A stretch of DNA of 64,000 bases from an uncultured delta proteobacterium (lineage in GTDB: Bacteria > Desulfobacterota > Desulfobacteria > Desulfobacterales > B30-G6): contig CAWGLD010000001.1 of assembly GCA_963823335.1 (NCBI GenBank), positions 512,001 to 576,000 on the forward strand, in the 5' to 3' direction. Both the position numbers and the translations under genes were made by a program. Positions 45,786-63,268 of this stretch are shown piece by piece. A model generated the notes under the pieces. The model ran no database searches. It was not told where the DNA came from and saw only the letters and a list, made by a program, of their open reading frames with translations. The first letter of the stretch is position 1, and every line of letters starts with the position of its first letter.

Positions 45786-46994
45786 ATGAACAACCCGCCT
45801 GCAGTAGCCGTTGTCGGTACATTTGATTCAAAGGGAGAAGAACATCTGTTCCTCAAGAACCGTATTGAAGAATTGGGGCTCCAGGTGTTGACCGTAAATG
45901 TCGGGACCAGAGAACCCATTCCCTTCGAAGTATCCCATGACCTGTATGCGTCCATGAAAAAGGATGCGACACTGGATGACAGTAACCGGGACAAAGCCAT
46001 TCAGGGAATGATCCATGGAGGCATACAGTTAATAAAACAACTGTATCGCGATGGTAAAATCCAGGCCATGATATCCGCCGGCGGTGGCAGTGGAACGCAC
46101 CTCTGTTCCAGTATCATGCGCGAACTCCCTATCGGGGTTCCAAAGGTGATGGTTTCAACCGTTGCCTCTCGAGACATGAAGCACACTGTCGGCACCAAAG
46201 ACATCACCATGATGCACAGCGTGGTGGACCTGCTGGGGGTGAACAGCATTTCCGGAATTATTCTGGACAAGGCCGCAGCAGCCGTTTGCGGCATGACCAT
46301 GAGTCAATGGCGGCCTGCTAAAGACAAAAGACGTATTGCACTCTCATTTTTCGGCTTCATCACAAAATCGGCCGAAGCAGTTAAAAAGGCCCTGGAGGGC
46401 ATGGGCTATGAAGTGATTCCCTTTCATGCCAATGGCACCGGCGGTATGGCCATGGAGGAGCTGGCCGCAGAAGGATATTTTGACGGCATTCTCGATCTGG
46501 CAACCCATGAACTGGCCGATGCGTTGATGGGTGGCTACTGCAGCGGCATCGGGCCCGGGCGTTTCGAGCCGTCTGCGGGGAAAAATATTCCCCGGCTGAT
46601 CACACCGGGAGGTCTTGACTGTGCCGTGCTCGAATTTACTCGCCAGCATGTTCCCGAAGAATACAGGAACCGCAAGGTATTTTATTATGACTTCAGATCC
46701 GCCATTCGCCTCACCCTCGAAGAGAGCCGGGTACTGGCTGAACAGCTGTCTGACAGACTGAACAAGGACGTGAAAAATGTTCATGTCCTGGTTCCCACCC
46801 AAGGATGGTCCGAAGCAGACCAGCAGGACGGACCGCTGTATGACCCTGAAACAAATGCATATCTGGTTAAAATTTTCAAAGAAAAACTGGACAAACGCAT
46901 TCAGCTTCAGGAAATCGACATGCACATCAATGATCCTGGTTTTGCTCAAATTGCGGCCAATGTAATGGATCAGATGGTCAAAGAGCGCAGCTAA
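45786..46994 (+). CDS. Tm-1-like ATP-binding domain protein (UPF0261), paralog 1
   Basis: GTFDSKGEE, GGGSGT, LPIGVPKVMVSTVAS, FHANGTGGMAMEEL, HINDPGFA. Confidence 0.88.
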   Translation: MNNPPAVAVVGTFDSKGEEHLFLKNRIEELGLQVLTVNVGTREPIPFEVSHDLYASMKKDATLDDSNRDKAIQGMIHGGIQLIKQLYRDGKIQAMISAGGGSGTHLCSSIMRELPIGVPKVMVSTVASRDMKHTVGTKDITMMHSVVDLLGVNSISGIILDKAAAAVCGMTMSQWRPAKDKRRIALSFFGFITKSAEAVKKALEGMGYEVIPFHANGTGGMAMEELAAEGYFDGILDLATHELADALMGGYCSGIGPGRFEPSAGKNIPRLITPGGLDCAVLEFTRQHVPEEYRNRKVFYYDFRSAIRLTLEESRVLAEQLSDRLNKDVKNVHVLVPTQGWSEADQQDGPLYDPETNAYLVKIFKEKLDKRIQLQEIDMHINDPGFAQIAANVMDQMVKERS

Positions 46995-47034
46995 ATGTCT
47001 AACTCCGAATATCAAAAGCGGAGATCTTCCAAAA

Positions 47035-47913
47035 ATGATTATCAAACCCGATTGCATCCCCTGTATCTTGAACATGTCTTTGCACTATCTTCGCAAACTG
47101 TCCCTTGGCGAGGAACAGGTCAACAAGATCTGTTCAGATATTCTGACATTGCGACCCCTCAGGGGAGAGATATGGGATATCACCAGCCCGGAAATCATCG
47201 AGCCGATCATGAAGAAAATCATGTCCGCTGTCGGCAGTCACGATCCCTTTGCAGTTGAAAGGGTAAAGCAGAACCAGAAGATGCTGACGCTGTATCCACA
47301 GCTGCAAAAAATGGTAAAGACAGCTGAGCATCCATTTAAAGCAGCAGCACACCTCGCCGGTCTTGGAAATGCCATCGATGTCATGCTGGTGGGGGGTGCC
47401 ACAGATATTCAGAAAATCATCAAAGAACAACTCGCCGATCCTCTGCCGGAAAATGTATTAGAGATACTTGAAAAACGGATCATGAGCAGTCGCCACATTC
47501 TCTACTTTGGCGACAATGCCGGAGAAATCGTTCTGGACAGGCTGTTCATCGAAACGATCAAAGAGCACTATGATACAGACATTACCTTTGTGGTCAGAAG
47601 TATGCCGACCTTGAACGATGCAACCCTGAAAGATGCAGAACAGACAGGTATGGCCAATCTGGTGCGTGTCATGGAGAACGGTATCGATGGTCCTGTCCCC
47701 GGAACCCTGCTGAATCGATGCTCAGGTGAGTTGCAGCGTCTTTTTCAGGAGGCGGATCTGATCATATCCAAAGGCGGTGGGAATTTTGACACCCTGGATG
47801 AGCTGCCGGAGAAGCGCAAAAGCAAGATATCCTATCTGCTGCTGTCAAAATGCCGCCCCTACCAAGAGCATTTTGGTGTGGGATTGCAGCGGGCGATACT
47901 ATTTAACGCTTAG
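47035..47913 (+). CDS. DUF89/ARMT1-like damage-control metal-dependent phosphatase
   Basis: N-terminal DCIPC, GNAID, DNAGEIVLD, LNDAT, ISKGGGNFDTL, KC. Confidence 0.88.
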   Translation: MIIKPDCIPCILNMSLHYLRKLSLGEEQVNKICSDILTLRPLRGEIWDITSPEIIEPIMKKIMSAVGSHDPFAVERVKQNQKMLTLYPQLQKMVKTAEHPFKAAAHLAGLGNAIDVMLVGGATDIQKIIKEQLADPLPENVLEILEKRIMSSRHILYFGDNAGEIVLDRLFIETIKEHYDTDITFVVRSMPTLNDATLKDAEQTGMANLVRVMENGIDGPVPGTLLNRCSGELQRLFQEADLIISKGGGNFDTLDELPEKRKSKISYLLLSKCRPYQEHFGVGLQRAILFNA

Positions 47914-47924
47914 AGAACTTTAAA

Positions 47925-48330
47925 AAAGGGTTTGAGGGTGATACAAGGGTGGTACAAGGGTTCGAGGGGGATAAAGGGGTTCGAGGGTCAGAGGGGGATA
48001 CAAGGGTTGGAGGGTGGCTGACAGCAGTTAGCGAAAGGCACCTAATAGTCTACAGTCTAAACCGCTAAAAGGCTAACCAGGGGTGGAGGGTGGTACAGGG
48101 GTTGGAGGGAAATAACTGTCATTTGCTTCGCGTAAATGAAAATGTTTCAGCTGTTAGGTTTTAAGTGTTAGGTAAGTCACGGGCTAAGAGCAACAATAAA
48201 TTACGCGCGCAGCGCAAATGACAGCCGAAGGCGAAATGTCGCGCGCAGCGCAAATGTCGTCCGCTAGGACAAATGACGCACGAAGTGCAAATGACATCCG
48301 AAGGATAAATGACGCCTGAAAGGCGAATGC
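47925..48330 (+). repeat. Largest composite element: G-rich 8-mers, core, 7-mers and 7-unit mini-hairpin array
   Basis: Array at 48198-48324 of AAAT(G/T)(A/T)C + 4-bp stem + GNA loop, 18-nt period (one 19-nt unit). Confidence 0.9.
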
Positions 48331-48342
48331 ACAGGGGGGCCC

Positions 48343-49554
48343 ATGCAGAAACCAAGCGTACTTCTTGTGGCAACAATGGATACCAAGTTCAGGGAAGCCG
48401 GCTTCATAGAATCCTGTCTCAAAGAATCCGGCTGTGCGGTCACGGTTATGGATGCCGGGATTCGTGGCGATAGCCCCGTACCTGTCACAATTACAAGACA
48501 CGAAGTCGCCCGGGCCGGCGGAAAAACATTATCGGAAATTCAATCCATAGGCCACGAAGGCGAAGCTCTCAACATGATGCTCATGGGCGCCTGCAGGATT
48601 GCGGACGAAATGATCGCCAAGGGTGCCGTCATTGGTGTCATAAGTCTGGGCGGCTCCATGGGAACCACACTCGGTACGGGTGTCATGCGCCGATTTCCCA
48701 TCGGGGTCCCAAAGGTGATGATCTCCACCATGGCCTCCAGGGATACCCGCACGTTTGTGGGAACAAAAGACATTCTTATGCTGCACGCCGTCTGTGATCT
48801 CTCGGGCCTCAACCGGTTTTCGAGAAAAATACTCCACAACGGCGCCATGGCCCTCTACGGCATGGTGTCCCGGAGCCGGAAAGACATTTCATCAGACAAA
48901 TCCATGATCTTTATTTCCACTCTGGGAACCACCGAGAAATGTGTTCAGGAGATACGCGCCTCCCTCGAAAAACAGGGTAAGGAAGTCGTGGTCTTTCACA
49001 CGGTGGGTTCCGGCGGCAGAGCCATGGAAGAACTCATCGCCTCAGAACCGGTTGAAGCCCTGGTGGACCTCTCCCTGCATGAAATGGCGGATCATCGTTT
49101 CGGAGGGGATTACGATGCAGGACCTGACAGGGGTTCCGTGGCATTGAAAAAGGGGATTCCGGTCGTCCTGGTACCCGGAAATATCGATTTTCTTGTGTCA
49201 GGACCGCTGGAGCAGTCCCTGAAAGATTTTCCCGATCGGCCGTACCATGTTCACAATACAGCCATTACGGTTGTACGAACGACCCGTGAAGAGATTGAAA
49301 GCATTGCCCGGCATGTAGGGGATTATTGTAATGCCGCCCCTGGACCGTACACCCTGGTAATTCCCATGAAGGGATTTTCAGCCTTTGACGCCATAGAGGG
49401 GCCGCTTCACGACCCCCAGGCACCGACCTGCTTTGTCAAAGCCCTGGAATCCCAGCTGTCCGACACATCACGGATGCACACCCTGCCATACCACATCAAT
49501 GATTCCGGCTTTTCTGCAGCTGTGATTGAAAAGCTCCAAGAACTGTTGCCCTGA
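48343..49554 (+). CDS. Tm-1-like ATP-binding domain protein (UPF0261), paralog 2
   Basis: ATMDTKFRE, GGSMGT, FPIGVPKVMISTMAS, FHTVGSGGRAMEEL, HINDSGFS. Confidence 0.88.
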   Translation: MQKPSVLLVATMDTKFREAGFIESCLKESGCAVTVMDAGIRGDSPVPVTITRHEVARAGGKTLSEIQSIGHEGEALNMMLMGACRIADEMIAKGAVIGVISLGGSMGTTLGTGVMRRFPIGVPKVMISTMASRDTRTFVGTKDILMLHAVCDLSGLNRFSRKILHNGAMALYGMVSRSRKDISSDKSMIFISTLGTTEKCVQEIRASLEKQGKEVVVFHTVGSGGRAMEELIASEPVEALVDLSLHEMADHRFGGDYDAGPDRGSVALKKGIPVVLVPGNIDFLVSGPLEQSLKDFPDRPYHVHNTAITVVRTTREEIESIARHVGDYCNAAPGPYTLVIPMKGFSAFDAIEGPLHDPQAPTCFVKALESQLSDTSRMHTLPYHINDSGFSAAVIEKLQELLP

Positions 49555-49560
49555 TCTCTA

Positions 49561-49935
49561 TCAGAAGCCATCAACAACCATCTTCCTGAAAAAAGCTATT
49601 GTGTCTTTTGCTTCAGTAATTACTGAATAAATAAGAACGCAAAACTGAAGACCAAAAATAACGCTTTCTAAAATAAAGAACTGTCTTGGGCTTGCGGTAA
49701 AAACAAGAAAAGGAACCAGTATCGCCGATAGCCAGAGAAAAATATAACGGAATATAATCTTTTTCTTCCGATTTTTTTCCCTTATCAGAGAAATAATTTT
49801 CAACATAACATAAACAATAATAATATCCGAGATGCTCCACAATATCCCTTGAACTTTTGTGGTCAACAGATAGGCTTCTGTTGAAAAGCTCTTACCTATT
49901 TCCCAAAAAAACATATCTGTTAATTCTGAGATCAT
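49561..49935 (-). CDS. Hypothetical membrane protein (about 3 TM)
   Basis: 124 aa, hydrophobic, AT-rich; ATGA overlap with the upstream gene. Confidence 0.65.
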   Translation of the reverse strand: MISELTDMFFWEIGKSFSTEAYLLTTKVQGILWSISDIIIVYVMLKIISLIREKNRKKKIIFRYIFLWLSAILVPFLVFTASPRQFFILESVIFGLQFCVLIYSVITEAKDTIAFFRKMVVDGF

Positions 49936-50528
49936 GCTAGCTTCTTTTTTAATAGGAAGAATATTTTAAGCCCAATCAGACCAACAATCCATTCTATGAT
50001 AATCCAGAACATCCCGCATATTTTGATGTAAAAAGTAAAAGAATTTTGTATGTTCCTATGGGTATACCCGTCCATATCGACCAATGAGCCAAGATATGAA
50101 TGGTAGGCAGCATAAAATGAAAAAAGACCTAGGAAGAATATACCCGGCCCAAATAAAAGAATCCTATTAAGTATTGGTTTTTTTCTCTCGATAACAATTC
50201 TTAACAGATTATAGATTTTGAAAACATAAATAACGATAGCCGCCTCGATTGCTACCCAGAGGGTGCAAAAGAAATTCCACAAATAGCTGTAATAGAAATA
50301 TCCTAATGGTTTGTATTTATTGCTTAAATACTTGTCGATATGTATCTCCTGGCCGAAGTTCAAACAGACAAGAAGAACAAAAACAGTGATACAAAAATAG
50401 ATAAATGCTATTTGCCGGGCGTCACCATTTTTAAGAAAAATAAACCCTTTTCTGATATAAATCATAACCAATCCTTCGGCGAACAGCCAAAAGATTCCCA
50501 TGATCTTTATAAAGAATGATAAACTCAT
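49932..50528 (-). CDS. Hypothetical membrane protein (about 5 TM) with internally repeated W-x3-E helices
   Basis: GIFWLFAE / CTLWVAIE / GMFWIIIE; AT-rich. Confidence 0.65.
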   Translation of the reverse strand: MSLSFFIKIMGIFWLFAEGLVMIYIRKGFIFLKNGDARQIAFIYFCITVFVLLVCLNFGQEIHIDKYLSNKYKPLGYFYYSYLWNFFCTLWVAIEAAIVIYVFKIYNLLRIVIERKKPILNRILLFGPGIFFLGLFSFYAAYHSYLGSLVDMDGYTHRNIQNSFTFYIKICGMFWIIIEWIVGLIGLKIFFLLKKKLA

Positions 50529-50561
50529 GTCTCTTAACCTGGATGACGCCTACAACATTTT

Positions 50562-51242
50562 CTAAACGAGCATATCCGTCAAATCCGCGATGCTGTCAAT
50601 GACGGCATCCGGGTTTTCCCGGCTCAACGCTTTATGGTCGTCAAACCCGGTGAGCACGCCAACCGTCTTCATCCCGGCTGCCTTACCCGCCTGAATATCT
50701 ATACGCGCATCCCCCACATACATGCAGTCCCGGGGCAGGACGCCAAGACTTTTACAGCCCTTTATCAATGGATCCGGCGCCGGCTTTTTACGGGGTGCAT
50801 CCTCTGCATGGATGATGAACTCCAGCAGCTTGTCAATGCCTGAGTCCACCAGTGTCGGCAGTTTGACCGCCATGCTTTGCCGGGGCGTGGATGTAACAAT
50901 GCCCATCCTGATCCCTTTTTGCACCATGGCCTGCAGGGCTTTTTTTGCATCAGGGATCAGTTTTACCTGGTTTCTGAAAAGATTTGGATATATTTCGGCA
51001 ATGATCTCACGGGTTTTCTTTATCAGGTGGTCTTTTTCTTGGGGTGTTTTTTTCGGGAACACACTGCCCCATTCAAAATCACCATTTTTTGCTGCCTCCC
51101 GAAGTCTGTCCCTGGAAGGCATCGGAAAATCGAGTCGATTGAATACTATTTCAATAATCTGGTAGTATATGTGAATGGAGTCCAGAATCGTTCCATCGAG
51201 GTCAAACAAAACAGCAGTCACATTAATTTTCTTATTGTTCAC
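50562..51242 (-). CDS. HAD-superfamily phosphatase (Gph-like)
   Basis: FDLDGTILDS, IVTS, KPAPDP, VGDARID. Confidence 0.92.
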   Translation of the reverse strand: MNNKKINVTAVLFDLDGTILDSIHIYYQIIEIVFNRLDFPMPSRDRLREAAKNGDFEWGSVFPKKTPQEKDHLIKKTREIIAEIYPNLFRNQVKLIPDAKKALQAMVQKGIRMGIVTSTPRQSMAVKLPTLVDSGIDKLLEFIIHAEDAPRKKPAPDPLIKGCKSLGVLPRDCMYVGDARIDIQAGKAAGMKTVGVLTGFDDHKALSRENPDAVIDSIADLTDMLV

Positions 51243-51800
51243 CTAATTATCCTGCGCTTTCTTCTTGTGCATCCAAAAATAGTAAAAGGCCAACAAGGTC
51301 ATGCCATTGTCGATGCGATTGTCATGAATCTCGGAAGAAACATGGGCCAGGGGAAGCTTGATGACATCCAGGTCTTCCCCTTCATCCAAGGCGGGTGCCT
51401 GCTGAAATTCAGCATCCATGGCCAGGCATACAACACATTTGTTGCTCAATATGGCCGGCTGGGGAAAACATTCACCAATCACACGAAAATCCCTGGATCC
51501 ATAGCCGGTCTCCTCCAAAAGCTCTCTCCGGGCGGCTGCAATGGGAGAAGGATCATCCGGGTCCACCAGCCCGCCAGGCAGCTCCAGGTGTACCTTCTCG
51601 GTGCCATGGCGGTACTGGTTGACCATCACGACTTCCTGTTCCGCGGTAAGCGCCAGCACCACAACCCAGGTGGGGAAGTGAATGGCCATCACATTCATGG
51701 TCTTCCCGGTTCTGGGCGAGCGTGCCTCTTTTGATTCTATCTGCATGAGTTTGAAATCATGCAGGATTTTTCGATTCAATATTTTCCACGGTCGGATCAT
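51243..51800 (-). CDS. Nudix hydrolase (NudF/ADP-ribose pyrophosphatase-like)
   Basis: QYRHG...LELPGG; Nudix box AARRELLEETGY. Confidence 0.92.
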   Translation of the reverse strand: MIRPWKILNRKILHDFKLMQIESKEARSPRTGKTMNVMAIHFPTWVVVLALTAEQEVVMVNQYRHGTEKVHLELPGGLVDPDDPSPIAAARRELLEETGYGSRDFRVIGECFPQPAILSNKCVVCLAMDAEFQQAPALDEGEDLDVIKLPLAHVSSEIHDNRIDNGMTLLAFYYFWMHKKKAQDN

Positions 51801-51825
51801 TCTGACAACTCCTTGATTACGCAAT

Positions 51826-51942
51826 GTTTTAGGTGTTAGGTATTAAGTTTTAGGTTCAGCCACAAGACAGGTGCCCCTTTGCTGTCCGCTAATGGCCGTC
51901 ACCCTTATACCACCCTCCGACCCTCCAACCCCCTCATCACCC
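51826..51942 (-). repeat. G-rich 8-mer tract, degenerate core and 7-mers between lysR and the Nudix gene
   Basis: Plus strand CACCCTTATACCACCCTCCGACCCTCCAACCCC and GTTTTAGGTGTTAGGTATTAAGTTTTAGG. Confidence 0.7.
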
Positions 51943-52890
51943 TCACCTCTGCTGGGCCAGTATCTTCAACATCAAGGCCCCGATATCCTGTGGTCGCATA
52001 TCTTCGGAGCGTAATTTTTTCAAGACTTTTTCAAAAGCCCTGGCAGGCATGGACAAGGGTTGCTTTTTCAGGTAGGCAAAACTGACGTCAAGATAAATCT
52101 GTTGTCCTTTGAGGGGAATCGTGGCCAATTTTCCTTCTTCGATTTCCGCAGCCACACAGGCCTTCACAAGAATGGAAACCCCCTCCCCTTTCTGAACCAG
52201 CTGTTTGATAAATTCGTTGTTACTGGTTTCCATGAGAACATTGGGTGTACAATCATGCTGTTTAAAAAGCATGTTCACGCGCTTTCGGGTTCCTGAACCT
52301 GTTTCCTTCATGATCAGCGGCTCTTTAGCCAGGTCCTGGGGGGAGATGTCTCCTTCGGCTGTCAGCGGGTGATTTACCGGAACAACAAGAATCAGCTCTT
52401 CCTGACTGAAAGGAACAAATGTAACCGCTGGATTCTCTGATGCCTTTGCAATGACAGCCACTTCATTCTTGAATTCCAGGAGGGTGTTGGTCATGTCCAG
52501 TGAGCTGCCCTCATCCAGATGAATTTTGATGCCGGGGTAGTCTTTATGAAAGCTGGAGAGCAGCGACGGCATAAAATAGCGCGCATAGGTCTTGGTGGTT
52601 CCCAGCCTCAGAACACCCCGTTTCAGCTCCTTCATGTCATCGATGACGTTCTCGATTTCTTTTTCATATTGAAAGATTTTCTGGGTGTATTCATACAGTG
52701 TCTTGCCTTCTTCCGTCAGATGTATCTGGCGTCCCTTTTTCTTGAACAGCTTCAGGTTGCATCCTTCTTCCAGTGCCTTGACCTGGGCCGTTACAGCCGG
52801 TTGTGTTACGAAGAGCATGCCTGCCGCAACCGTAAAACTGGCATGCTTCGCTGCATAATGAAAGGTCCTGAGCTGGTTGAAGTTCAACAT
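51943..52890 (-). CDS. LysR family transcriptional regulator, divergent from the ppsA-like operon
   Basis: MLNFNQLRTF...SFT.AA..L.VTQPAVTAQVKALE HTH; KETGSGTR. Confidence 0.93.
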   Translation of the reverse strand: MLNFNQLRTFHYAAKHASFTVAAGMLFVTQPAVTAQVKALEEGCNLKLFKKKGRQIHLTEEGKTLYEYTQKIFQYEKEIENVIDDMKELKRGVLRLGTTKTYARYFMPSLLSSFHKDYPGIKIHLDEGSSLDMTNTLLEFKNEVAVIAKASENPAVTFVPFSQEELILVVPVNHPLTAEGDISPQDLAKEPLIMKETGSGTRKRVNMLFKQHDCTPNVLMETSNNEFIKQLVQKGEGVSILVKACVAAEIEEGKLATIPLKGQQIYLDVSFAYLKKQPLSMPARAFEKVLKKLRSEDMRPQDIGALMLKILAQQR

Positions 52891-52983
52891 GAACGTCTTC
52901 CTTTTTGAAGTATCTCCCAACAAGTCACGGGGCAAGCGCGCGCTGTCGTGTTTCAAAACTTTTATTTATGGAAAATAAATCAC

Positions 52984-52998
52984 ATAAGAAAATGTTAT
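52984..52998. promoter_or_regulatory. LysR-type binding site (T-N11-A) next to a TTGACA -35
   Basis: ATAA-GAAAATG-TTAT; TTGACA at 53021-53026. Confidence 0.55.
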
Positions 52999-53207
52999 AA
53001 TCAACATAAATTTAATTGAATTGACAGAATATTTTAGTTACTCCATAAATATTTATATTATATCTCCTTCTGCTGCTGAATGTTTTTGCTGATACTTCTT
53101 ACTGAGACTGGTTTCAGAGCCTCCATTATTCATCGTCCAAGCTTACCCTGCGGACCTTCAGGGTTCGGCAAAATTCCTATTAACCCCACACAAAAAGGAG
53201 GATAAAA

Positions 53208-55156: not shown

Positions 55157-56233
55157 GTGGAAATGGAGTATGTTCTTACTTTCCTGGAGGTAGACAAAAA
55201 TTCACTGTCGCTGGTTGGCGGCAAAAACGCCAGTCTGGGAGAATTGATAAAGGCGGACATTCGCGTGCCTCCCGGTTTTGCCGTAACCACGGAGAGTTAT
55301 CATAAATTTATCACCGAAACCGGGATCAGGGACAAGATTTTCCAAATACTATCGGACATGAAGCCGGGAGACATTGCCGCCCTGAATGCCGCCAGCGAAA
55401 GTATCCAGACGCTGATACAGGGTTCAGCCCTGTCGGAAGACATCCGATCGGCCATCGAAAAAGCATATGCGGAGCTCTGCGCCGACTGCCGGGTAATCGA
55501 CATGCCGGTGGCGGTTCGTTCAAGCGCTACGGCCGAAGACCTGCCCACGGCCAGCTTCGCCGGTCAACAGGACACCTATCTCTGGATTCAGGGTCACAAA
55601 GATGTCGCGGAAAAGGTTCAGCGCTGCTGGGCCAGCCTGTTTACACCCCGGGCCATCGATTATCGTGTAAAAAATAAGTTTGCACATGAGAAAGTTCTGA
55701 TCAGCGTAGGGGTTCAGAAAATGGTGAACTCCAGAGCTGCCGGGGTTATGTTTACATTGAACCCGACCGACGGCGACCTGTCCAAGGTCGTTATCGAAGG
55801 CAGCTGGGGGCTGGGGGAGACTGTCGTTTCCGGCTCCGTCAATCCGGACAAGTTCGTGGTAGACAAGGTGGTCATGGAAACTTCAGACAAGACCATTTCC
55901 ACCAAACACATCGCCTGCGTATACGACCCGCAGGCAGGTAAGGTCGTGGATGCGGATGTGGATGAAGACATGCAGTGCAAATGCTGTCTGGAGGATATGG
56001 AAGTCAAGGCCCTGGTGAGCATGGGCAAGTTGATCGAACGGCACTACAAGCGCCCCATGGACATCGAATGGGCCATCGATAAAGACCTCGATTTCCCCGA
56101 GAATATCTTTATCGTGCAGGCGCGGCCGGAGACCGTCTGGAGCCAGCGTAAGACACGCTCGCTAATCGGCGCTAAAAGCGGCTATCAACTTTTGATGGAA
56201 CAGGCCATGAAACGGATCAAGATACCCAGTTAA
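55157..56233 (+). CDS. Phenylphosphate synthase beta subunit-like protein (ATP-grasp N-terminal domain of PEP synthase)
   Basis: VGGKNASLGEL, AVRSSATAEDLPTASFAGQQDTYL, WGLGETVVSG, DIEWA, QARPETVWS; no His or pyruvate domain. Confidence 0.88.
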   Translation: MEMEYVLTFLEVDKNSLSLVGGKNASLGELIKADIRVPPGFAVTTESYHKFITETGIRDKIFQILSDMKPGDIAALNAASESIQTLIQGSALSEDIRSAIEKAYAELCADCRVIDMPVAVRSSATAEDLPTASFAGQQDTYLWIQGHKDVAEKVQRCWASLFTPRAIDYRVKNKFAHEKVLISVGVQKMVNSRAAGVMFTLNPTDGDLSKVVIEGSWGLGETVVSGSVNPDKFVVDKVVMETSDKTISTKHIACVYDPQAGKVVDADVDEDMQCKCCLEDMEVKALVSMGKLIERHYKRPMDIEWAIDKDLDFPENIFIVQARPETVWSQRKTRSLIGAKSGYQLLMEQAMKRIKIPS

Positions 56234-56238
56234 AAAAT

Positions 56239-56385
56239 AGGGTTCGAGGGTCCGAGGGTCCGAGTGGCGAAGGGTGGCTGACGGCAGTGAGCGAAAGGCA
56301 CCTGCAGCCTATCGTCTAAACGCCTAAAAGAAGTGCTTGGTTCTCAGCTGAAATTAACACTAAAACCTAAAACCTAAAACGAAAA
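56239..56385 (+). repeat. G-rich 8-mers, 33-nt core and 7-mers
   Basis: AGGGTGGCTGACGGCAGTGAGCGAAAGGCACCT (56271-56303), identical to 60403-60435. Confidence 0.88.
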
Positions 56386-56491
56386 TACTGCACTAACGTC
56401 TATACCGCAAAAAAAATCGTTTGGTAAAAATCATATGGGTTTTGTTTGCATGTTTGTTCAATTCTAACCAATAAAGGAGGACTGTTGCTCT

Positions 56492-57898
56492 ATGAAGAAC
56501 ATGAGAGATTTTATCACAGAAGGTGAGAAAAAGGGCCTGTGTAAACGAATTTCAGCTGAAGTCGATTGGAATCTGGAGTTGTCGCATATCGCCAAACTCA
56601 ATGAAGAGCAAAAGGGTCCGGCGCTGCTGTTTGAAAATGTGAAGGACTATGACACACCGGTGATTACCAGTGTCTGTACCACCCCTGAAAGACTGGCATT
56701 TATCCTTGGTCAACCATTGGATTCCACGCTTGTAGATCTCTACGCGCACTGGGCCAAGCTGGGGGACAACCTGTTGGAGCCCAAGTATGTGGAAAAAGCG
56801 GATGCGCCATGCAAAGAGAATATCATCACCGGGGACGACATTGACCTTTTCAAATTCCCCGTGCCGCAGTGGTATCCTCTGGACGGGGGCCGTTATATCG
56901 GGACCGCTCATTTCTTCATCAGCAAGGATCCCGAAACCGGCTGGGTAAACCTGGGAACCTACAGGGCTCAGCTATTGGGAAAAGACAAGATTGGCACCCA
57001 GTTTATCAAGGGCAAACATGCCGACATCATGCTGAAGAAATATCAAGCCATGGGGAAACCCATGCCGGTGGCTTCAGTAATCGGGTGTGATCCTCTGCTT
57101 TTTATCCTCGGTGCAGCACGCGTTTCAGCTTTTACTTCAGAATACGATGTGGCAGGCGCCCTGCGCGGTGAGCCTGTAGAAGTCGTTAAAGGAGAAATCG
57201 TCGATCTGCCCATTCCGGCACATGCCGAGATCGTGCTCGAAGGAGAAGTGGATGCCGACAAATTTATGGAAGAAGGACCGTTCGGTGAATATACCGGGTA
57301 TTATTCCGGCGTTGGTACGGATCCACGCAATTTCATGGATGTCCAATGTGTCACCCATCGTAACAATCCGATTCTCTGGGGAACCACCGTCGGCCGGGCC
57401 GTTACAGACACGCACATGACCATGGCACTGTCATATGGGGCCACCCTTTGGCAACAATTGTTGGCCATGAAGATTCCAGGCTTGAAAGCGGTTTACTGCC
57501 CGCCGGAAGGCTCCGGACGGTTTTTGGCCATCATCTCCATGAAGCAGATGTATCCCGGGCATGCAGACCAGGTGCTCACGGCTGCCATTTCAACGGAAAT
57601 GGGTGCCTATGGTCTGAAAACCGTCATCGTCGTGGATGAGGATATCGACCCCTGGGATATTCCCCGGGTCCTGTATGCCTTGAGTTTCAGATTCCAGCCC
57701 AACCGCAGTCAGGTCATCAAGAGAGGGCGGTCCACACCACTGGATCCGTCTCTGCCCATCAATGCGCGGGAAATTACCGGTAGACTTTTGTTGGATGCCA
57801 CCATACCCTATGACTGGAAACACAAACCGATTCCCATTGAACTGGACGCGGAAATGGTGAAAAGAGTCAAGTCGCGATGGTCTGAGTTGGGGTTATAA
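56492..57898 (+). CDS. UbiD-family (de)carboxylase, phenylphosphate carboxylase beta subunit-like
   Basis: EVDWNLELSHI.KL.E..KGPALLFE, DGGRYIGT, NLGTYR, EGPFGEYTGYY, KRGRSTPLDP (PpcB-like by recall). Confidence 0.88.
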   Translation: MKNMRDFITEGEKKGLCKRISAEVDWNLELSHIAKLNEEQKGPALLFENVKDYDTPVITSVCTTPERLAFILGQPLDSTLVDLYAHWAKLGDNLLEPKYVEKADAPCKENIITGDDIDLFKFPVPQWYPLDGGRYIGTAHFFISKDPETGWVNLGTYRAQLLGKDKIGTQFIKGKHADIMLKKYQAMGKPMPVASVIGCDPLLFILGAARVSAFTSEYDVAGALRGEPVEVVKGEIVDLPIPAHAEIVLEGEVDADKFMEEGPFGEYTGYYSGVGTDPRNFMDVQCVTHRNNPILWGTTVGRAVTDTHMTMALSYGATLWQQLLAMKIPGLKAVYCPPEGSGRFLAIISMKQMYPGHADQVLTAAISTEMGAYGLKTVIVVDEDIDPWDIPRVLYALSFRFQPNRSQVIKRGRSTPLDPSLPINAREITGRLLLDATIPYDWKHKPIPIELDAEMVKRVKSRWSELGL

Positions 57899-57932
57899 AA
57901 ATAAAAACGCTCAATTTAGGAGGAGTTAGGTA

Positions 57933-58448
57933 ATGTCCGATACCGACATGATAGAAGACAAAAAGGTTCTGGTGGTTGATGATGAACAGGACATTCTGGA
58001 GGTTTTGGAAGAACTGCTGGATATGTGCCATGTGACAACAGCGTCGACCTTTGATCAGGCTAAAACCCTGTTGGAAACCCAGGCCTTTGACATCGCGATT
58101 CTCGATATCATGGGGGTTGACGGATATCGCCTGTTGGAAATTGCCAACAAGAAAAAGATACCCGCAATTATGCTTACAGCGCATGCATTCTCTGCCGGCA
58201 ACCTGGTAAAGACCATCAAAGAGGGTGCCTATGCCTATGTTCCCAAAGAAGAAATCGGCCGGATCGCCGAGTTTCTTTCAGATGCCTTGAACGCCAAAAA
58301 ACAAGGCAAAAATCCCTGGCGCGTCTGGGAGGAAAGACTGCCGTCATCCTATTTTGAAAAAAGATGGGGGGCGGCCTGGAAGAATTCGGACCGGGACTTC
58401 TGGAACAAATTCAGGGAAAGCATCAAAACGCGGGATGGGAAAAAATAA
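57933..58448 (+). CDS. Stand-alone response regulator receiver protein with Trp-rich tail
   Basis: VLVVDDE, ILDIMG, MLTAH, YVPK. Confidence 0.88.
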   Translation: MSDTDMIEDKKVLVVDDEQDILEVLEELLDMCHVTTASTFDQAKTLLETQAFDIAILDIMGVDGYRLLEIANKKKIPAIMLTAHAFSAGNLVKTIKEGAYAYVPKEEIGRIAEFLSDALNAKKQGKNPWRVWEERLPSSYFEKRWGAAWKNSDRDFWNKFRESIKTRDGKK

Positions 58449-58527
58449 CGCAGTTATCCCCAACCAGGATAAACCGGTTGGAGTGAAGCGAAAACCCTGG
58501 CTTGCCGGGGAAAAGATAAGACCTTTT

Positions 58528-58607
58528 ATCACGAAAGCACGAAAGTACGAAAACACGAAAATTTTCATGGTCTTTTTCGTGTTTTTCAGATTTCGTGTTT
58601 TCGTGAT
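58528..58607. repeat. Inverted arrays of the 8-mer CACGAAA(A/G)
   Basis: CACGAAAG CACGAAAG TACGAAAA CACGAAAA ... TTTTCGTG TTTTTCAG ATTTCGTG TTTTCGTG. Confidence 0.8.
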
Positions 58608-58705
58608 TGCTTATATTTTTTTGCCACATAATTTACAAATTTTACAGTGCTCTGTGTCATTTGGACTTTATAGATAAGCATGAAAAAGAAAGAAGGAGGT
58701 TTGAA

Positions 58706-60361
58706 TTGAAACCGATTCGTTACCAGAAAGATATGATCGATGAATTTGTGACCGATGGTTACTGGACCGAAGAGCTTTTCTATGACTTCTGGGATAGAAA
58801 TGCCCGGGAAATCGGTAACCGGGAAGCGCTGGTAGACTCGAAATATCGCCTGACATGGTCTGAAGCCAAAAAACTGGTGGACGCCATGGCCATTTCCTGG
58901 GTGGAAATGGGAATTCCCAAACATTCCCGGGTCATCATTCAATCGCCCAACAGTGTCTACGGGTTTCTCGCCCGAATCGCCTGTGAGAGGGCCGGACTCA
59001 TTTCTCTTACGGTCTATCCATACCTTCGTCAGAGGGAATTGGAGTACATGCTGGAGAAAACAGAGGCCAAGGCAGTCGTTATTCTGAACATCTACAACAA
59101 ATTCAATTATCTAAAAATGTACACGGAGCTCCAGAAACAGTTTCCCCATCTAAAATATTTTTTTCTTTTCGACGATGACGTTCCGGACGATGCGCCTGCG
59201 GGTACCTATTCGCTGCCCCGGATGACCCAGCTCCGGGCAGAAAAACCAGTGGACGCATCCGTGCTGGCAGAACGCAGGTTGGACCCGTTCTGGAACATCT
59301 CCCTGCTCACGACCACATCCGGCACCACCGGTATCCCCAAGCTGGTGGAGTGGCCCACCGCGCCCCGCGTCTGCACATCCAAAGGCAGATGCGCCATCTG
59401 GAACCTCAACCGTGACGACACCACCATGGCCATCGCCCCTCATGCCGGCGGAGCGGCTGGAACACTGACGTATTTCGCCGCCCCCATTGCCGGTGCCAAA
59501 ACCGTGATGTTGGAGGAGTTTTCCGGCGAAGGCGCGCTGGCGCTCATCGAAAAAGAGAAAGCTACGGCCATCGGTGTGGTTCCCACCCACCTTATACGGA
59601 TGCTGGAGGCCGACGTCTCCAAATACGATCTGAGTTCTCTGCGGTTTATCCGCTCGGCCGGCGGGTATTTATCACCCCAGGTGGCCGAAGAAGCTGAAAA
59701 CGCATTTAAGGCAAGCATTACCAGCGACCTTGGGACCCAGGACAAGGGATCGGTGTCCGGGTGCAGCGTAGAGGATTCAAAGGATCTTCGCCGCAGAACC
59801 GTCGGCCGCATGCTTCCGGGCAACAAGGTGAGATTGCTGGACAAGGACACCGGCAAAGAAGTGCCCGAGGGCGAACCCGGAGTTCTCTGGCTCAGGGGCC
59901 CCCACGCCCCGGCAGGATACTTCCGGGACGAGGAATTGACCGCCACGGTGTTCGACAAGGACGGATGGACCACCACGGAGGATATCGTCAAATTCGATCA
60001 GGGCTGTCTGTGGATTCTGGGCCGGGCCAAGGACATGATCATCCGGGGAGGACAGAACATCTATCCTGCAGAGATCGAGGGCCTGCTCAATGATCATCCC
60101 GGGGTATCGTCTGTAGCGGTTGTGGGGTATCCGGACCGGGAGATGGGTGAACGGTGCTGTGCCTACGTCATCCCCAAGCCTGGTGTGGATTTTTCCTTTG
60201 ACGAAATGGTTTCTTTTCTCAAGGGGAAAAATATTGCCATGTTCAAACTTCCGGAACGGCTCGAAATTGTGTCTGAGTTTCCCCTGGTGGGAGATTCGGG
60301 CAAGGTCAACAAGGAAACCTTGAAGGAACAGATCAAGGCATTGGTTGAGAAGGGGAGCTAA
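58706..60361 (+). CDS. Aryl/cyclic carboxylate-CoA ligase (AMP-binding)
   Basis: TTSGTTGIPK, GRAKDMIIRGGQNIYPAEIE, MGERCCAYV, FKLPERL; TTG start after AGGAGG. Confidence 0.85.
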   Translation: MKPIRYQKDMIDEFVTDGYWTEELFYDFWDRNAREIGNREALVDSKYRLTWSEAKKLVDAMAISWVEMGIPKHSRVIIQSPNSVYGFLARIACERAGLISLTVYPYLRQRELEYMLEKTEAKAVVILNIYNKFNYLKMYTELQKQFPHLKYFFLFDDDVPDDAPAGTYSLPRMTQLRAEKPVDASVLAERRLDPFWNISLLTTTSGTTGIPKLVEWPTAPRVCTSKGRCAIWNLNRDDTTMAIAPHAGGAAGTLTYFAAPIAGAKTVMLEEFSGEGALALIEKEKATAIGVVPTHLIRMLEADVSKYDLSSLRFIRSAGGYLSPQVAEEAENAFKASITSDLGTQDKGSVSGCSVEDSKDLRRRTVGRMLPGNKVRLLDKDTGKEVPEGEPGVLWLRGPHAPAGYFRDEELTATVFDKDGWTTTEDIVKFDQGCLWILGRAKDMIIRGGQNIYPAEIEGLLNDHPGVSSVAVVGYPDREMGERCCAYVIPKPGVDFSFDEMVSFLKGKNIAMFKLPERLEIVSEFPLVGDSGKVNKETLKEQIKALVEKGS

Positions 60362-60460
60362 AACAGGGTCCAGGGGTGATACAAGGGTGGTAAGAGGGTT
60401 CGAGGGTGGCTGACGGCAGTGAGCGAAAGGCACCTAAAAGCCTACAGTCTAAAGCCCTAA
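60362..60460 (+). repeat. G-rich 8-mers, 33-nt core and 7-mers
   Basis: Core at 60403-60435 followed by AAAAGCCTACAGTCTAAAGCCCTAA. Confidence 0.88.
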
Positions 60461-60523
60461 TTTTCTGAACTAGGTTCATCGGCTTTTCGCTAGTGTCCGT
60501 CCAAAAATAGAGATTTTCGCGTT

Positions 60524-61735
60524 ATGCCAAAGCAGATCCTGATCATATCCACCCTGGACACCAAAGGGGTGGAAACACGTTACTTGAAGCAGAAAATCGA
60601 GGCGCTGGGTCTTTCCGCCATCCTCATGGATCTGTCCATGCGCGCTGACGTTAAACTGCCGGCTGAAATAACCAATGCCCAGGTGGCTGAAGCAGGCGGC
60701 AGCAGCATCGAAGAAATCGGGCAATCCCGTGAACGAAGCAAGATCACGAAAATCATGACGTCCGGGGCTTCCAAGCTGGCAAGGCAGTATTATGGCGAGG
60801 GCAGAATCGACGGTGTAATTGCAATGGGCGGATCCACCGGCACCCTGATGGCATCCGATGTGATGCGGTCCCTCCCTTTTGGTGTTCCCAAGACAGTTAT
60901 ATCTTCTACGGCAGCACTTCCCGGTCTTTCCACCAGGTATATCGGAACAGGGGATATTACGCTGTTTCATTCGGTAATCGAAATTTCCGGTCTTTCCAAT
61001 TTGTTAAAAAACGTGATGGACAGGGCAGCACACGCCATCACCGCCATGGTTCATGAGACAGTCACACCCCTGGTTACGGGCGAGGGAAAAGCCATCGCCC
61101 TGACCATGCTGGGTCCCTGTGAAAAATGTGCCAGCTTTGTCCGTATTGCCCTTGAAAAAGAAGGCTATCAGGTCATCGGCTTCTCCGCAGCCGGTGTGGG
61201 TGATCGGGCCATGGAACAGATGATCGCCGAAGGGTTTTTTCAGGGTGTCATCGACCTGGCGCCGGGTGGGGTCGGGGAGCATCTTTTCGGTTTTATGAGA
61301 GATGCAGGCCCGAATCGACTGGAAAATGCAGGCAGGATGGGAATTCCAATGATTGTTTCCACCTGCAGCGTCAATCACATGACACCCTCAAAGTCCAGAT
61401 ACCAAGCCGAATACCACCAGCGCCGCAAATATGACCTGGATAAATTTCGCACCTGGATACGATTGTCGCCGGAAGAGCTGCAGAGCGTTGCGCAAGCCTT
61501 TGCCGCGAAATTGAACAAAGCCGGCGGCCCGGTAAAATTCCTGATACCGCAGAATGGTTGGTCTTCGGTGGACCAGCCCGGCAATCCGACCCACGATCCA
61601 CAGGAGGACCGCATCTTCGTTGAGGTGCTGCAACAAAACCTGCGCCCGGACATCGACATCCTGGAAATACAGGCCAATATGGAAGACCCGGTCTTTGCCC
61701 AGGCTGTTGTTGAAACGGCATTGCATCTATTTTAA
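60524..61735 (+). CDS. Tm-1-like ATP-binding domain protein (UPF0261), paralog 3
   Basis: STLDTKGVE, GGSTGT, LPFGVPKTVISST, FSAAGVGDRAMEQM, NMEDPVFA. Confidence 0.85.
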   Translation: MPKQILIISTLDTKGVETRYLKQKIEALGLSAILMDLSMRADVKLPAEITNAQVAEAGGSSIEEIGQSRERSKITKIMTSGASKLARQYYGEGRIDGVIAMGGSTGTLMASDVMRSLPFGVPKTVISSTAALPGLSTRYIGTGDITLFHSVIEISGLSNLLKNVMDRAAHAITAMVHETVTPLVTGEGKAIALTMLGPCEKCASFVRIALEKEGYQVIGFSAAGVGDRAMEQMIAEGFFQGVIDLAPGGVGEHLFGFMRDAGPNRLENAGRMGIPMIVSTCSVNHMTPSKSRYQAEYHQRRKYDLDKFRTWIRLSPEELQSVAQAFAAKLNKAGGPVKFLIPQNGWSSVDQPGNPTHDPQEDRIFVEVLQQNLRPDIDILEIQANMEDPVFAQAVVETALHLF

Positions 61736-61908
61736 TTGACCATATGCCTCTTGAAAAAGTAGCTCCTCTGGGATAAAGAATCGATTCTTTATTCTGCTGG
61801 GAAGCGAGGATGCTTGGAGACTGGGATGCTGCTGTCCGTTTTTATCTCTCAGCCACCCTCGAATCCTTGGCCTCTGGAACCCTTTTTCCTAAAAAAAGCG
61901 AGGTACCC

Positions 61909-62514
61909 ATGTCCAAACGAATTGTCATAGGAATATCCGGTGCAAGCGGTGTGACGTACGGTGTGCGCCTGCTCAGCCTGCTGAAAGACAGTGATTATGA
62001 AACGCACCTGATCTTGTCCGAATCCGGCAAACTCAATATCAAGATCGAGACAGCCTACACACCCGAGGAAGTCCAGGCCATGGCCAGTCATGTGTATGAC
62101 CACAAAGACATGGCCGCCGCTCTGTCATCCGGTTCTTTCCTGACCCAGGGCATGGTGGTGGTCCCGTGTACCATAAAGACCTTGTCCGGGATTGCCAACT
62201 CATATAACGAGAACCTTCTTGTGCGGGCCGCCGATGTCACATTAAAGGAAAAACGCAAACTGGTTCTGGTGGTGAGAGAAACGCCCCTGCACCTCGGTCA
62301 CCTGCGCCTCATGACACTGGCGGCGGAAATGGGAGCCCTTATTGTACCGCCGGTGCCCTCCTTTTATCATCAACCCGAAACCCTCCAGGACATCATCGAT
62401 CAAACCATCGGCAAGGTATTCGATTACCTCGGTATCGAACACGCGCTTTTTAATCGCTGGGGTGAGAACAAAAGAATGCCCAGGACACCCGATGCCTCAT
62501 TAAAAGCACTTTAA
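61909..62514 (+). CDS. ubiX: Flavin prenyltransferase
   Basis: GISGASG, SSGS, PCTIKTLSGIA, RAADVTLKEKRKL...RETP, PSFY; start at MSKRIV (the longer ORF begins inside a repeat). Confidence 0.93.
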   Translation: MSKRIVIGISGASGVTYGVRLLSLLKDSDYETHLILSESGKLNIKIETAYTPEEVQAMASHVYDHKDMAAALSSGSFLTQGMVVVPCTIKTLSGIANSYNENLLVRAADVTLKEKRKLVLVVRETPLHLGHLRLMTLAAEMGALIVPPVPSFYHQPETLQDIIDQTIGKVFDYLGIEHALFNRWGENKRMPRTPDASLKAL

Positions 62515-63259: not shown

Positions 63260-63268
63260 GACATAGCC

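Follow-up and report, generated by a model that had tools for sequence, protein, structure and literature searches.

The stretch of DNA analysed here (the window, 64,000 nucleotides in full, positions 512,001 to 576,000 of contig CAWGLD010000001.1 from an uncultured delta proteobacterium of the Desulfobacterales) carries an operon at 53208-62514 in which a PpsA/PpsB-like dikinase is followed by a PpcB-type UbiD carboxylase, a small receiver protein, an AMP-binding aryl-acid ligase, a UPF0261 protein and the flavin prenyltransferase UbiX (Table 1). This operon is probably a phenol-type activation module of strictly anaerobic Desulfobacterota and the counterpart of the phe cluster of Desulfatiglans anilini DSM 4660. 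Domains and families were assigned to the open reading frames (ORFs) of the window with Pfam and NCBIfam, in agreement with the gene list that a preliminary description, made from the sequence alone, had given for 45786-62514. Related loci were drawn from a collection holding one genome per species, in which 281 stretches encode a PpsA-like relative, and the best 80 of these (L001-L080) were used.

Gene content of the operon and its counterpart in Desulfatiglans anilini

The UbiD protein scores above the curated equivalog cut-off set for phenylphosphate carboxylase's beta subunit (TIGR02724), with 49.5% identity to PpcB and 34% to PpcA of Azoarcus. In a tree of UbiD proteins it falls in a clade of 51 sequences (support 99); canonical PpcB is the sister group of this clade, and PpcA lies outside. 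Among many proteins from metagenome-assembled genomes, a search with the UbiD returned a deposited protein (P0312), 83% identical over the full length and titled ‘phenylphosphate carboxylase subunit beta [Desulfatiglans anilini]’, 468 aa long and with a computed mass of 52.24 kDa. The mass listed for H567DRAFT_02059 in Table 1 of PMC6114531 equals this value, and the proteome table of PMC7500099 gives 468 aa for 02059, compared to 473 aa and 466 aa for the other PpcB-like proteins of D. anilini (03872 and 03563, respectively). Because 02059, unlike 03872 or 03563, agrees with P0312 in length and mass, the two are identified with each other, and the UbiD of the window is the orthologue of Ppc-beta2. 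The UbiX protein is 56% identical to Azoarcus UbiX.

Pfam recognises only the swivel His domain in the PpsA-like alpha subunit, which nonetheless matches NF006153 with 847 bits. Its His573 aligns, within a conserved GG..SHAAIV motif, with His569 of Azoarcus PpsA, the phospho-accepting residue in Thauera numbering (PMC7500099). The PpsB-like gene starts 92 bp downstream of the PpsA-like gene, and its product is 49.9% identical to Azoarcus PpsB. Reference dikinases were taken from plasmid records with readable gene context, and the PpsA-like protein proved roughly equidistant from them, with identities of 41.6% to PpsA of Azoarcus KH32C, 41% to a Cre-type kinase of Rhodococcus (with P450 and HD neighbours), 39% to an Hpe/Acv-type kinase of Rhizobium (with biotin carboxylase neighbours) and 45% to a haloarchaeal protein. 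Beyond its own cluster, the next full-length match in a library of representatives at 50% identity is 44% identical to it. A quick maximum-likelihood tree of 71 alpha subunits, with SH-aLRT support only and named references from plasmid records only, places a Desulfobacterota clade (support 100) as sister to a haloarchaeal clade (99), apart from the Azoarcus clade and from the Cre/Hpe group. Trees of both proteins had been called for in the preliminary description: the PpsA-like protein lies outside the canonical betaproteobacterial clade, for which Azoarcus served as reference, and the UbiD is sister to canonical PpcB. Since the PpsA-like protein is equidistant from the references and outside the Azoarcus clade, the kinase alone does not fix the substrate.

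The nearest relatives of the PpsA-like protein outside the Desulfobacterota are encoded on haloarchaeal megaplasmids (42-45% identity). On a plasmid of Natribaculum luteum (L082, 9950-12979) the kinase lies beside a HAD-IB phosphatase, a large FAD/Fe-S oxidoreductase, a Rieske dioxygenase and an aldehyde dehydrogenase, a neighbourhood that suggests an aerobic, phosphorylation-initiated alkylphenol route in archaea.

Table 1. Genes of the operon and of the region upstream of it, with positions in the window
Feature	Position	Strand	Size, domains and models
UPF0261 #1	45786-46994	+	402 aa; PF06792 + PF23189
DUF89/ARMT1-type metal-dependent phosphatase	47035-47913	+	PF01937, E=2.3e-49; between two UPF0261 genes
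UPF0261 #2	48343-49554	+	403 aa; PF06792 + PF23189
Hydrophobic ORF	49561-49935	-	124 aa; no Pfam or NCBIfam match
Hydrophobic ORF	49932-50528	-	198 aa; no Pfam or NCBIfam match
HAD-IA phosphatase (phosphoglycolate-phosphatase-like)	50562-51242	-	PF13419
Nudix hydrolase	51243-51824	-	PF00293
LysR-family regulator, divergent from the main operon	51943-52956	-	PF00126 + PF03466
PpsA-like alpha subunit	53208-55064	+	618 aa; PF00391 at residues 539-609; NF006153 847 bits
PpsB-like ATP-grasp beta subunit	55157-56233	+	358 aa; PF01326 PPDK_N, E=2.8e-120
PpcB-type UbiD carboxylase (prenylated flavin mononucleotide, prFMN)	56492-57898	+	468 aa; TIGR02724 507.7 bits, cut-off 468.95
Single-domain receiver	57933-58448	+	171 aa, C-terminal extension of about 60 aa; PF00072
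AMP-binding aryl-acid ligase, DhbE/salicylate-AMP ligase type	58607-60361	+	PF00501 + PF13193
UPF0261 #3 (in-operon Tm-1/MarK-family ATP-binding protein)	60524-61735	+	403 aa; PF06792 + PF23189
UbiX flavin prenyltransferase	61810-62514	+	NF004685 262 bits, cut-off 188

Two gene starts in Table 1 are probably over-extended. The ligase ORF measures 584 aa compared to a family median of 551 aa in the related loci, and its true start probably lies at about 58706-58733; in UbiX the Pfam match starts at residue 36 and a Met at residue 34 precedes the GISGASG motif, so that 61909 is the probable start. Promoter-like and terminator-like sites in the window (13 and 29) were within about two standard deviations of the numbers in shuffled sequences (17.2 +/- 5.1 and 20.5 +/- 5.5, respectively), and no Rfam match was found across 44000-64000.

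With queries from Azoarcus KH32C (tblastn, E<=1e-3), no match to PpsC (CBS), PpcD or PpcG was found in the 64-kb window, and the PpcA query matched only the single UbiD gene, at 34%. The 258-bp gap between the PpsB and UbiD genes holds no element conserved across 41 loci and no ORF able to be PpcC, and the remaining ORFs of the window belong to general metabolism, with no further pps or ppc gene among them. The absence of ppsC, ppcA, ppcC/G and ppcD from the window, pointed out in the preliminary description, is thereby upheld, and Pfam and the comparison with Azoarcus KH32C likewise bear out its remark that a LysR protein replaces the sigma-54 (XylR/DmpR-type) regulator and that other accessory genes are present. 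The further step of presenting these features as a novel variant pathway is not supported, since the absence of these genes from the cluster is reported for D. anilini (PMC6114531) and the features called non-canonical are published hallmarks of the phenol pathway of strict anaerobes. According to that report, only ppcB is found in the phe cluster of D. anilini, with ppsC, ppcA and ppcD elsewhere and ppcC missing from the genome; the stimulating gamma subunit PpsC, encoded outside the cluster there too, is dispensable for activity; and the cluster of Geobacter metallireducens has only a ppcB homologue.

The architecture of the operon is likewise that already published for the phenol-induced phe cluster (H567DRAFT_02049-02059; PMC6114531; PMC7500099), which also contains a receiver, PpsB, PpsA, UbiX, a UPF0261 protein, a ligase of the dihydroxybenzoate-AMP type and PpcB, and also lacks ppsC, ppcA, ppcC and ppcD. 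The proteins agree closely in length (Table 2), and tags 02059-02058-02057-02056 reproduce the window order UbiD-ligase-UPF0261-UbiX, an order read from consecutive tag numbers and not from coordinates or strands. A PaaK-like ligase (02049) and 4-hydroxybenzoyl-CoA reductase-like proteins (02053-02055) are found inside the phe cluster only, whereas the UPF0261-DUF89-UPF0261 set, the Nudix-HAD set and the divergent LysR gene are found in the window only. Phenol is reported to induce the counterparts, and phenylphosphate to be formed in extracts of D. anilini (PMC6114531; PMC7500099). The window therefore holds a copy, from an uncultured member of the Desulfobacterota, of the D. anilini-type phenol cluster and not a new type of pathway.

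Table 2. Proteins of the D. anilini phe cluster, with areas on 4-aminobenzoate, aniline, benzoate and phenol (in this order) as listed under ‘raw data replicate 1’ in Table_1.XLSX of PMC7500099
Locus tag	Protein	Length (aa)	Window counterpart (aa)	Abundance
02050	CheY-like receiver	175	171	1.1e9, 8.8e8, 6.9e8, 6.0e9
02051	PpsB	358	358	highest on phenol
02052	PpsA	615	618	highest on phenol
02053-02055	4-hydroxybenzoyl-CoA reductase-like			
02056	UbiX	193		detected on phenol only
02057	‘Uncharacterized protein, UPF0261 family’	403	403	0, 5.0e7, 5.3e7, 2.5e9
02058	‘2,3-dihydroxybenzoate-AMP ligase’	552	about 551	8.5e8, 8.0e8, 6.6e8, 1.26e10
02059	PpcB (Ppc-beta2)	468	468	1.5e9, 8.8e8, 8.8e8, 1.8e10

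The ani cluster of D. anilini (PMC7500099) resembles the window in combining a dikinase, a PpcB-type UbiD and a UPF0261 protein that is tag-adjacent to an acyl-CoA synthetase of about 550 aa, which are induced together. Its tags 03868-03872 are listed as PasB, UPF0261, acyl-CoA synthetase (549 aa), PasA and PpcB (Ppc-beta, 473 aa). PasA, at 554 aa, is about 27% identical to D. anilini PpsA, whereas the alpha subunit of the window is PpsA-sized. Among tags 03867-03872 as given in that source there is no UbiX, and the ubiX-like gene found (02056) is that of the phe cluster. The UPF0261 protein of the ani cluster (03869, 411 aa) gave areas of 5.4e9, 6.5e8, 0 and 0 on the four substrates of Table 2, about eight-fold higher on 4-aminobenzoate than on aniline in replicate 1, a pattern that fits a role after the carboxylation step. 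UPF0261 proteins are thus induced by substrate in both D. anilini clusters, as far as these replicate data go.

Conservation across related loci and the probable substrate

Synteny was assessed from ORFs called and clustered in the related loci, counting only those with enough flanking DNA (24 upstream and 38 downstream of PpsA). UbiD is found downstream of PpsA in 36 of the 38 evaluable loci, UPF0261 in 35, PpsB in 34, UbiX in 33, and the ligase and the receiver in 26 each, and LysR is found upstream in all 24. A UPF0261 gene follows the ligase within 600 bp in 25 of 28 loci and precedes UbiX by no more than 900 bp in 32 of 38. With UbiD, UPF0261 and UbiX recurring at these frequencies, the arrangement is not due to chance, and the comparison of synteny across Desulfobacterota that the preliminary description had called for shows the module to be conserved. 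The UPF0261 protein is as constant a part of it as UbiD and UbiX. The upstream accessory genes vary (UPF0261 in 9 of 24 loci, Nudix in 7, HD in 4, HAD and DUF89 in 3 each), and DUF120 and LMW-PTP are present in a few related loci.

The best 80 loci encode proteins 69-90% identical to the PpsA-like protein and carry titles of metagenome-assembled genomes (MAGs) or uncultured isolates; among these 80 of 281 stretches no record is titled with a cultured species. They include the Olavius symbiont ‘Delta 1’, Ca. Desulfacyla euxinica and Desulfatiglandaceae, together with a few bins labelled Bacteroidota or Anaerolineales. At 80-93% identity, at least 120 cluster representatives are listed for the PpsA-like protein, the named ones being MAGs of Desulfobacterales or ‘Deltaproteobacteria’. 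Mean column identity of the UbiD is 89% over 21 sequences, which include one with only 59% identity to the UbiD of the window. The module is therefore widespread and tightly conserved in uncultured sediment Desulfobacterota.

In 16 of the 38 operons a protein of about 131 aa with a PF21758 domain (PAC_bac, proteasome-assembly-chaperone-like) is encoded between UPF0261 and UbiX, for example at 9872-10285 in L002. The window has none. This protein might be a small carboxylase or cofactor-loading subunit.

One locus from a Desulfobacteraceae MAG (L061, 6028-14819) represents a natural module swap. It starts with LysR, PpsA (79% identity), PpsB and receiver genes of the window type, after which come a PaaK-like ligase, an additional UbiD, UbiX, a PpcB of the canonical kind (653 bits), two PpcD-like proteins and a PpcA cut by the contig end, without any UPF0261 gene; among the 80 loci, PpcD and PpcA are found here only. 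Because the same PpsA clade is joined in L061 to a canonical phenylphosphate carboxylase, this single locus points to phenol. In three other loci (L051, L053 and L063) the operon lacks a CoA ligase, and a five-gene Liv-type ABC transporter (a Peripla_BP_6 binding protein, two permeases and two ATPases) lies directly upstream of PpsA, a sign that the substrate of this subclade may be anionic or hydrophilic.

The computations directly provide the family assignments, the catalytic His, the orthology of the UbiD to Ppc-beta2 and the conserved synteny. From these we infer the substrate, the order of the steps and the roles of the UPF0261, DUF89, HAD, Nudix and receiver proteins. The substrate is likely phenol or a close phenolic, given the 83% identity of the UbiD to Ppc-beta2, the shared set of parts and the fact that the absence of ppsC and ppcACD has already been published for D. 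anilini. In the proposed scheme, the PpsA/PpsB-like dikinase would convert phenol (or a close phenolic) and ATP into the aryl phosphate, AMP and Pi through phospho-His573; the single PpcB-type UbiD would then carboxylate the aryl phosphate para to the oxygen, with UbiX supplying prFMN; and the DhbE-type ligase would turn the resulting hydroxy-aryl acid into its CoA thioester, pulling carboxylation forward. Regulation would be exerted by the LysR protein and the small receiver.

Several observations weigh against this assignment. Against all references of known context the PpsA-like protein reaches only 38-45% identity; it groups with the haloarchaeal clade instead of Azoarcus PpsA, and its own clade holds no placed member of tested activity. 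The correspondences with D. anilini other than that of PpcB rest on annotation, length and locus-tag order, not on sequence. No 4-hydroxybenzoyl-CoA reductase genes (molybdenum-hydroxylase, xanthine dehydrogenase family) were found among the scanned window ORFs or the recurrent families of the 80 loci, whereas D. anilini has them inside its cluster. The ligase has as its nearest solved relatives 2,3-dihydroxybenzoate-AMP ligase (E=2.6e-64) and salicylate-AMP ligase (E=4.8e-61), which activate ortho-hydroxy acids; by position it matches 02058 of D. anilini, which is called function unknown in PMC6114531, where the role of 4-hydroxybenzoate ligase is given to 02049. A single UbiD may not be enough, since Ppc-beta and Ppc-beta2 of D. 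anilini together are reported not to convert phenylphosphate to 4-hydroxybenzoate in vitro (PMC7500099). The transporter genes in L051, L053 and L063 fit an anionic substrate better than phenol, and both phenol-binding His residues of the kinase MarK, described below, are replaced in the in-operon UPF0261 protein.

The same chemistry might instead serve another phenolic or aromatic amine, such as hydroquinone, catechol, aminophenol or a hydroxybenzoate, with several kinases for several hydroxyl groups and an ortho carboxylation that would yield a salicylate- or gentisate-type acid for the DhbE-type ligase. The distinct PpsA clade, at no more than 45% identity to any reference, would be in keeping with this alternative, as would the affinity of the ligase to dihydroxybenzoate- and salicylate-AMP ligases, the combination of three UPF0261 subfamilies and a dikinase in one locus, the upstream transporters of L051, L053 and L063, the lack of hcr genes nearby, and the report that D. 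anilini PasAB takes both aniline and phenol (PMC7500099). However, the UbiD passes the PpcB equivalog cut-off and is close to a phenol-induced protein, the PpsA-like protein resembles 02052 in size and not PasA, the same PpsA clade goes together with a canonical phenylphosphate carboxylase in L061, and the DhbE-type ligase is itself induced by phenol in D. anilini (Table 2). On balance we regard this alternative, which the preliminary description had raised as a possible substrate other than phenol, as unlikely, and no result obtained here supports that proposal. Two further systems were considered and rejected as models for the operon: a phthaloyl-CoA decarboxylase-type UbiD/ligase system, which does not fit a UbiD scoring above the PpcB cut-off in the company of a dikinase, and the benzene ‘Magic’ cluster (PMC13101534), whose genes are unrelated.

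UPF0261 proteins, accessory genes and the wider window

The UPF0261 genes were treated in the preliminary description under the unexplained label ‘Tm-1-like’, which is superseded, as an activity of the family has been demonstrated since 2025. MarK (Saro_1862) of Novosphingobium aromaticivorans, the first UPF0261 protein with an activity, is an ADP-forming kinase of phenolic hydroxyls that prefers para-carbonyl phenols, and is described as having D14/T15/K16 in its proposed ATP site and G195/H219/H304 in its phenol site (PMC12624787). These six positions were mapped onto 70 UPF0261 proteins from the window and the related loci. For structural comparison we used PDB 9mpy (‘UPF0261 domain-containing protein’), which we take to be the structure of MarK. 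UPF0261 #2 matches it over residues 2-402 (E=1.4e-99) and has the signature DTKGHH, that is, all six MarK residues. UPF0261 #3, the in-operon copy, matches it with E=3.1e-54 and has the signature DTKGSL, with Ser and Leu at the positions of His219 and His304. UPF0261 #1 matches Tm-1 with E=1.7e-55 and 9mpy with E=6.2e-46 and has the signature DSKGHY. As only UPF0261 #2 keeps the equivalents of G195, H219 and H304, only this protein can be filed as MarK-like, and by its residues it is plausibly an ADP-forming kinase for phenolic substrates.

Among the 70 proteins the most frequent signatures are DSKGHY (20), DTKGSL (17), DTKGHH (8), DERGHQ (8), EEKGSY (5), NTKGHL (4) and DTRGHI (4). The signatures correspond to well-supported clades, the clade of UPF0261 #2 comprising 8 rows and that of UPF0261 #1 comprising 23, both with support 100. 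At least six UPF0261 subfamilies have been recruited to these operons. DTKGSL, NTKGHL and EEKGSY proteins are found after the ligase, and DERGHQ and DTRGHI proteins after UbiD or the receiver in operons without a ligase. Among the relatives listed for UPF0261 #3, all at 68% identity or more, none is named D. anilini, and in a plasmid search its best matches did not exceed 36% identity. The deposited protein for UPF0261 #3 (P0394) has 369 aa, with 100% identity at 92% coverage; its gene call probably starts too late, because it falls short of the 403 aa of the orthologues and lacks the stretch that carries the N-terminal D-T-K motif.

The position of UPF0261 #3 suggests an integral, ATP-binding component of kinase fold in the ligase/carboxylase part of the module, which would use ATP or ADP. 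We tentatively picture it as a phosphotransferase, and not simply as a second phenol kinase, with either the para-acyl phenol product (4-hydroxybenzoate or its CoA ester) or the aryl phosphate as the partner that receives or gives up phosphate; a para-acyl phenol is a reasonable guess for the acceptor because MarK prefers para-carbonyl phenols. Taken further, the UPF0261 protein may be the missing component of aryl-phosphate carboxylation in strict anaerobes, its ATP- or ADP-linked phosphotransfer standing in for PpcA, PpcC and PpcD, with either the aryl phosphate or the para-acyl product (a phenol or an aniline) as acceptor or donor. This is a tentative idea that we hold to be rather unlikely as it stands. 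It is based on the location of UPF0261 beside the aryl-CoA ligase in the window and, by adjacent tags, in the phe as well as the ani cluster of D. anilini. If true, recovery of ATP or a phosphate leaving group for reductive dehydroxylation would become possible, and the failure of the UbiD pair on phenylphosphate in vitro could be explained, as could the way in which sulfate reducers afford the pathway.

Alternatively, all three UPF0261 proteins of the window could be cheaper, ADP-forming phenol-kinase isoenzymes that feed the same carboxylase at the cost of one ATP equivalent and not two, the dikinase serving at low substrate concentration. This is compatible with the formation of AMP by HpeHI/PpsAB-type enzymes and of ADP by MarK, with the presence of both kinds of kinase in 179 of the 657 genomes that have an aromatic kinase, about a quarter (PMC12624787), and with the complete set of MarK residues in UPF0261 #2. 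Yet that full signature occurs in only 8 of the 70 proteins and the in-operon copy departs from it at two His positions. The fixed place after the ligase in the related loci, and next to a synthetase tag in both D. anilini clusters, as well as the higher abundance of 03869 on 4-aminobenzoate than on aniline (replicate 1), argue for a later step. We consider it doubtful that the three proteins are isoenzymes in this sense.

It is still less probable that the in-operon UPF0261 protein serves cofactor supply, as a kinase that provides UbiX with dimethylallyl phosphate (or FMN) and replaces the canonical ORF7-UbiD/DUF120/Nudix set. Its usual location less than 900 bp upstream of UbiX, the grouping of UbiX with a DUF120 riboflavin kinase and a Nudix protein in Azoarcus, the occurrence of DUF120 in a few related loci and the loss of the phenol-binding His residues of MarK could all be understood in this way. 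However, the ani tags 03868-03872 include UPF0261 and, in the source, no UbiX, and the acceptor-site residues differ between copies (DTKGSL, NTKGHL, DTRGHI, DERGHQ, EEKGSY), which would not be expected for one invariant small substrate.

Upstream of the operon, the DUF89 protein falls below both NCBIfam cut-offs for damage-control phosphatases, and the UPF0261-DUF89 pair recurs in L001, L008, L019 and L079. The best NCBIfam matches of the HAD-IA phosphatase are PGP models, all below cut-off, and it does not match Azoarcus PpcD; from its sequence it is not assigned to the KdsC-like PpcD type. The Azoarcus cluster also has a Nudix gene beside UbiX, but the Nudix proteins of the two clusters show no BLAST match at E<=1e-3. 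DUF89, HAD and Nudix, together with HD, LMW-PTP and DUF120 in other loci, may be interchangeable phosphohydrolases or suppliers of prFMN precursors, a cofactor role likened to the Azoarcus cluster, where Nudix and DUF120 adjoin UbiX. The ‘second arm’ of the preliminary description was correct in gene content, yet it consists of two converging units (UPF0261-DUF89-UPF0261 on the forward strand and LysR-Nudix-HAD-membrane-membrane on the reverse strand) instead of one arm, and its two membrane proteins cannot be retained as members of the cluster. A tblastn search of the 80 loci, L001 and L079 being the closest, found no counterpart of these two overlapping hydrophobic ORFs, which lie between UPF0261 #2 and HAD and are for this reason not part of the conserved cluster. 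G+C is 0.46 at 50001-52000, compared to about 0.50-0.53 in the operon. The pair is specific to this genome, has the look of a lineage-specific insertion and probably lies outside the system.

Elsewhere in the window, a region on the reverse strand (3009-10127) encodes a PAS/sigma-54 activator beside two flavoproteins of the Old Yellow Enzyme family, one of which (666 aa) has an added pyridine-nucleotide-disulphide reductase domain, together with a nitronate-monooxygenase-like protein, a thioesterase and an acyl-CoA dehydrogenase. The domain pair of the 666-aa protein is one that we associate with dienoyl-CoA and aryl-CoA reductases, and the region could be another module for aromatic or alicyclic CoA esters. 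A second region on the same strand (31692-40839), some 2 kb upstream of the PtsI gene in front of the cluster, has a Liv-type ABC transporter with an ACT-domain protein and two AMP-binding ligases (533 and 642 aa) on its flanks, a layout typical of uptake and activation clusters for aromatic or fatty acids. An MttB-family methyltransferase homologue and two genes with the MTHFR C-terminal domain DUF5981, one of them an MTHFR fusion, are located at 10751-12337, 19118-20569 and 62558-63259. The second DUF5981 gene, followed by ferredoxin-like genes, comes right after UbiX, as DUF5981 and Fer4 do in L001 and L025. These genes probably belong to methyl-group or Wood-Ljungdahl metabolism.

Significance and comparison with known systems

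Knowledge of the phenol route in strict anaerobes is only half complete. For D. anilini it is reported that carboxylase activity was not demonstrable in extracts, and the authors ask how a sulfate reducer pays the ATP cost (PMC6114531; PMC7500099). What is new here is modest: the breadth and conservation of the module, the constancy and induction of UPF0261, and a kinase family not linked to these clusters in the literature searched. No function is given to 02057 in the D. anilini papers, as far as their available text goes (PMC6114531; PMC7500099), and a full-text literature search, whose coverage excludes subscription journals, found no paper assigning UPF0261 a role in these clusters. The UPF0261 kinase family makes both the completion of the carboxylase and the energy cost directly testable. 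A caution applies to metagenomic surveys: PpsA hits used there as markers of the phenol pathway belong to a clade whose phenol substrate is a prediction, and are candidate markers only.

Among known systems, the Thauera/Aromatoleum-type ppsABC-ppcBDAG cluster, as seen on plasmid pAZKH of Azoarcus sp. KH32C, shares with the window PpsA/PpsB, PpcB, UbiX and a Nudix gene and AMP-binding ligase nearby. In addition it has PpsC (CBS), PpcA, PpcD, PpcG, a further UbiD paralogue, a DUF120 riboflavin kinase and a sigma-54 regulator, and it has no UPF0261, whereas the window has three UPF0261 genes, a LysR regulator and a DhbE-type instead of a PaaK-type ligase. With MarK the window shares the two-domain UPF0261 fold and, in UPF0261 #2, the residues D14/T15/K16/G195/H219/H304; the reported context of MarK is, however, that of biotin-dependent acetovanillone carboxylase genes in an aerobe (PMC12624787), compared to a UbiD carboxylase in an anaerobe here. 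Finally, the Cre (4-cresol) and Hpe/Acv systems (CreHI, HpeHI, AcvAB; PMC9618137, PMC12167813) have a homologous alpha/beta dikinase, with 39-41% identity in the alpha and 41-47% in the beta subunit for the Rhodococcus and Rhizobium plasmid examples. In those systems a dedicated HD or HAD phosphatase removes the phosphate later, and the loci related to the window carry HD, HAD, LMW-PTP or DUF89. The Cre and Hpe/Acv systems differ from the window in that the side chain is oxidised or biotin-carboxylated with the phosphate kept as a protecting group, in the absence of UbiD and UbiX, and in the separate group formed by their alpha subunits in the tree.

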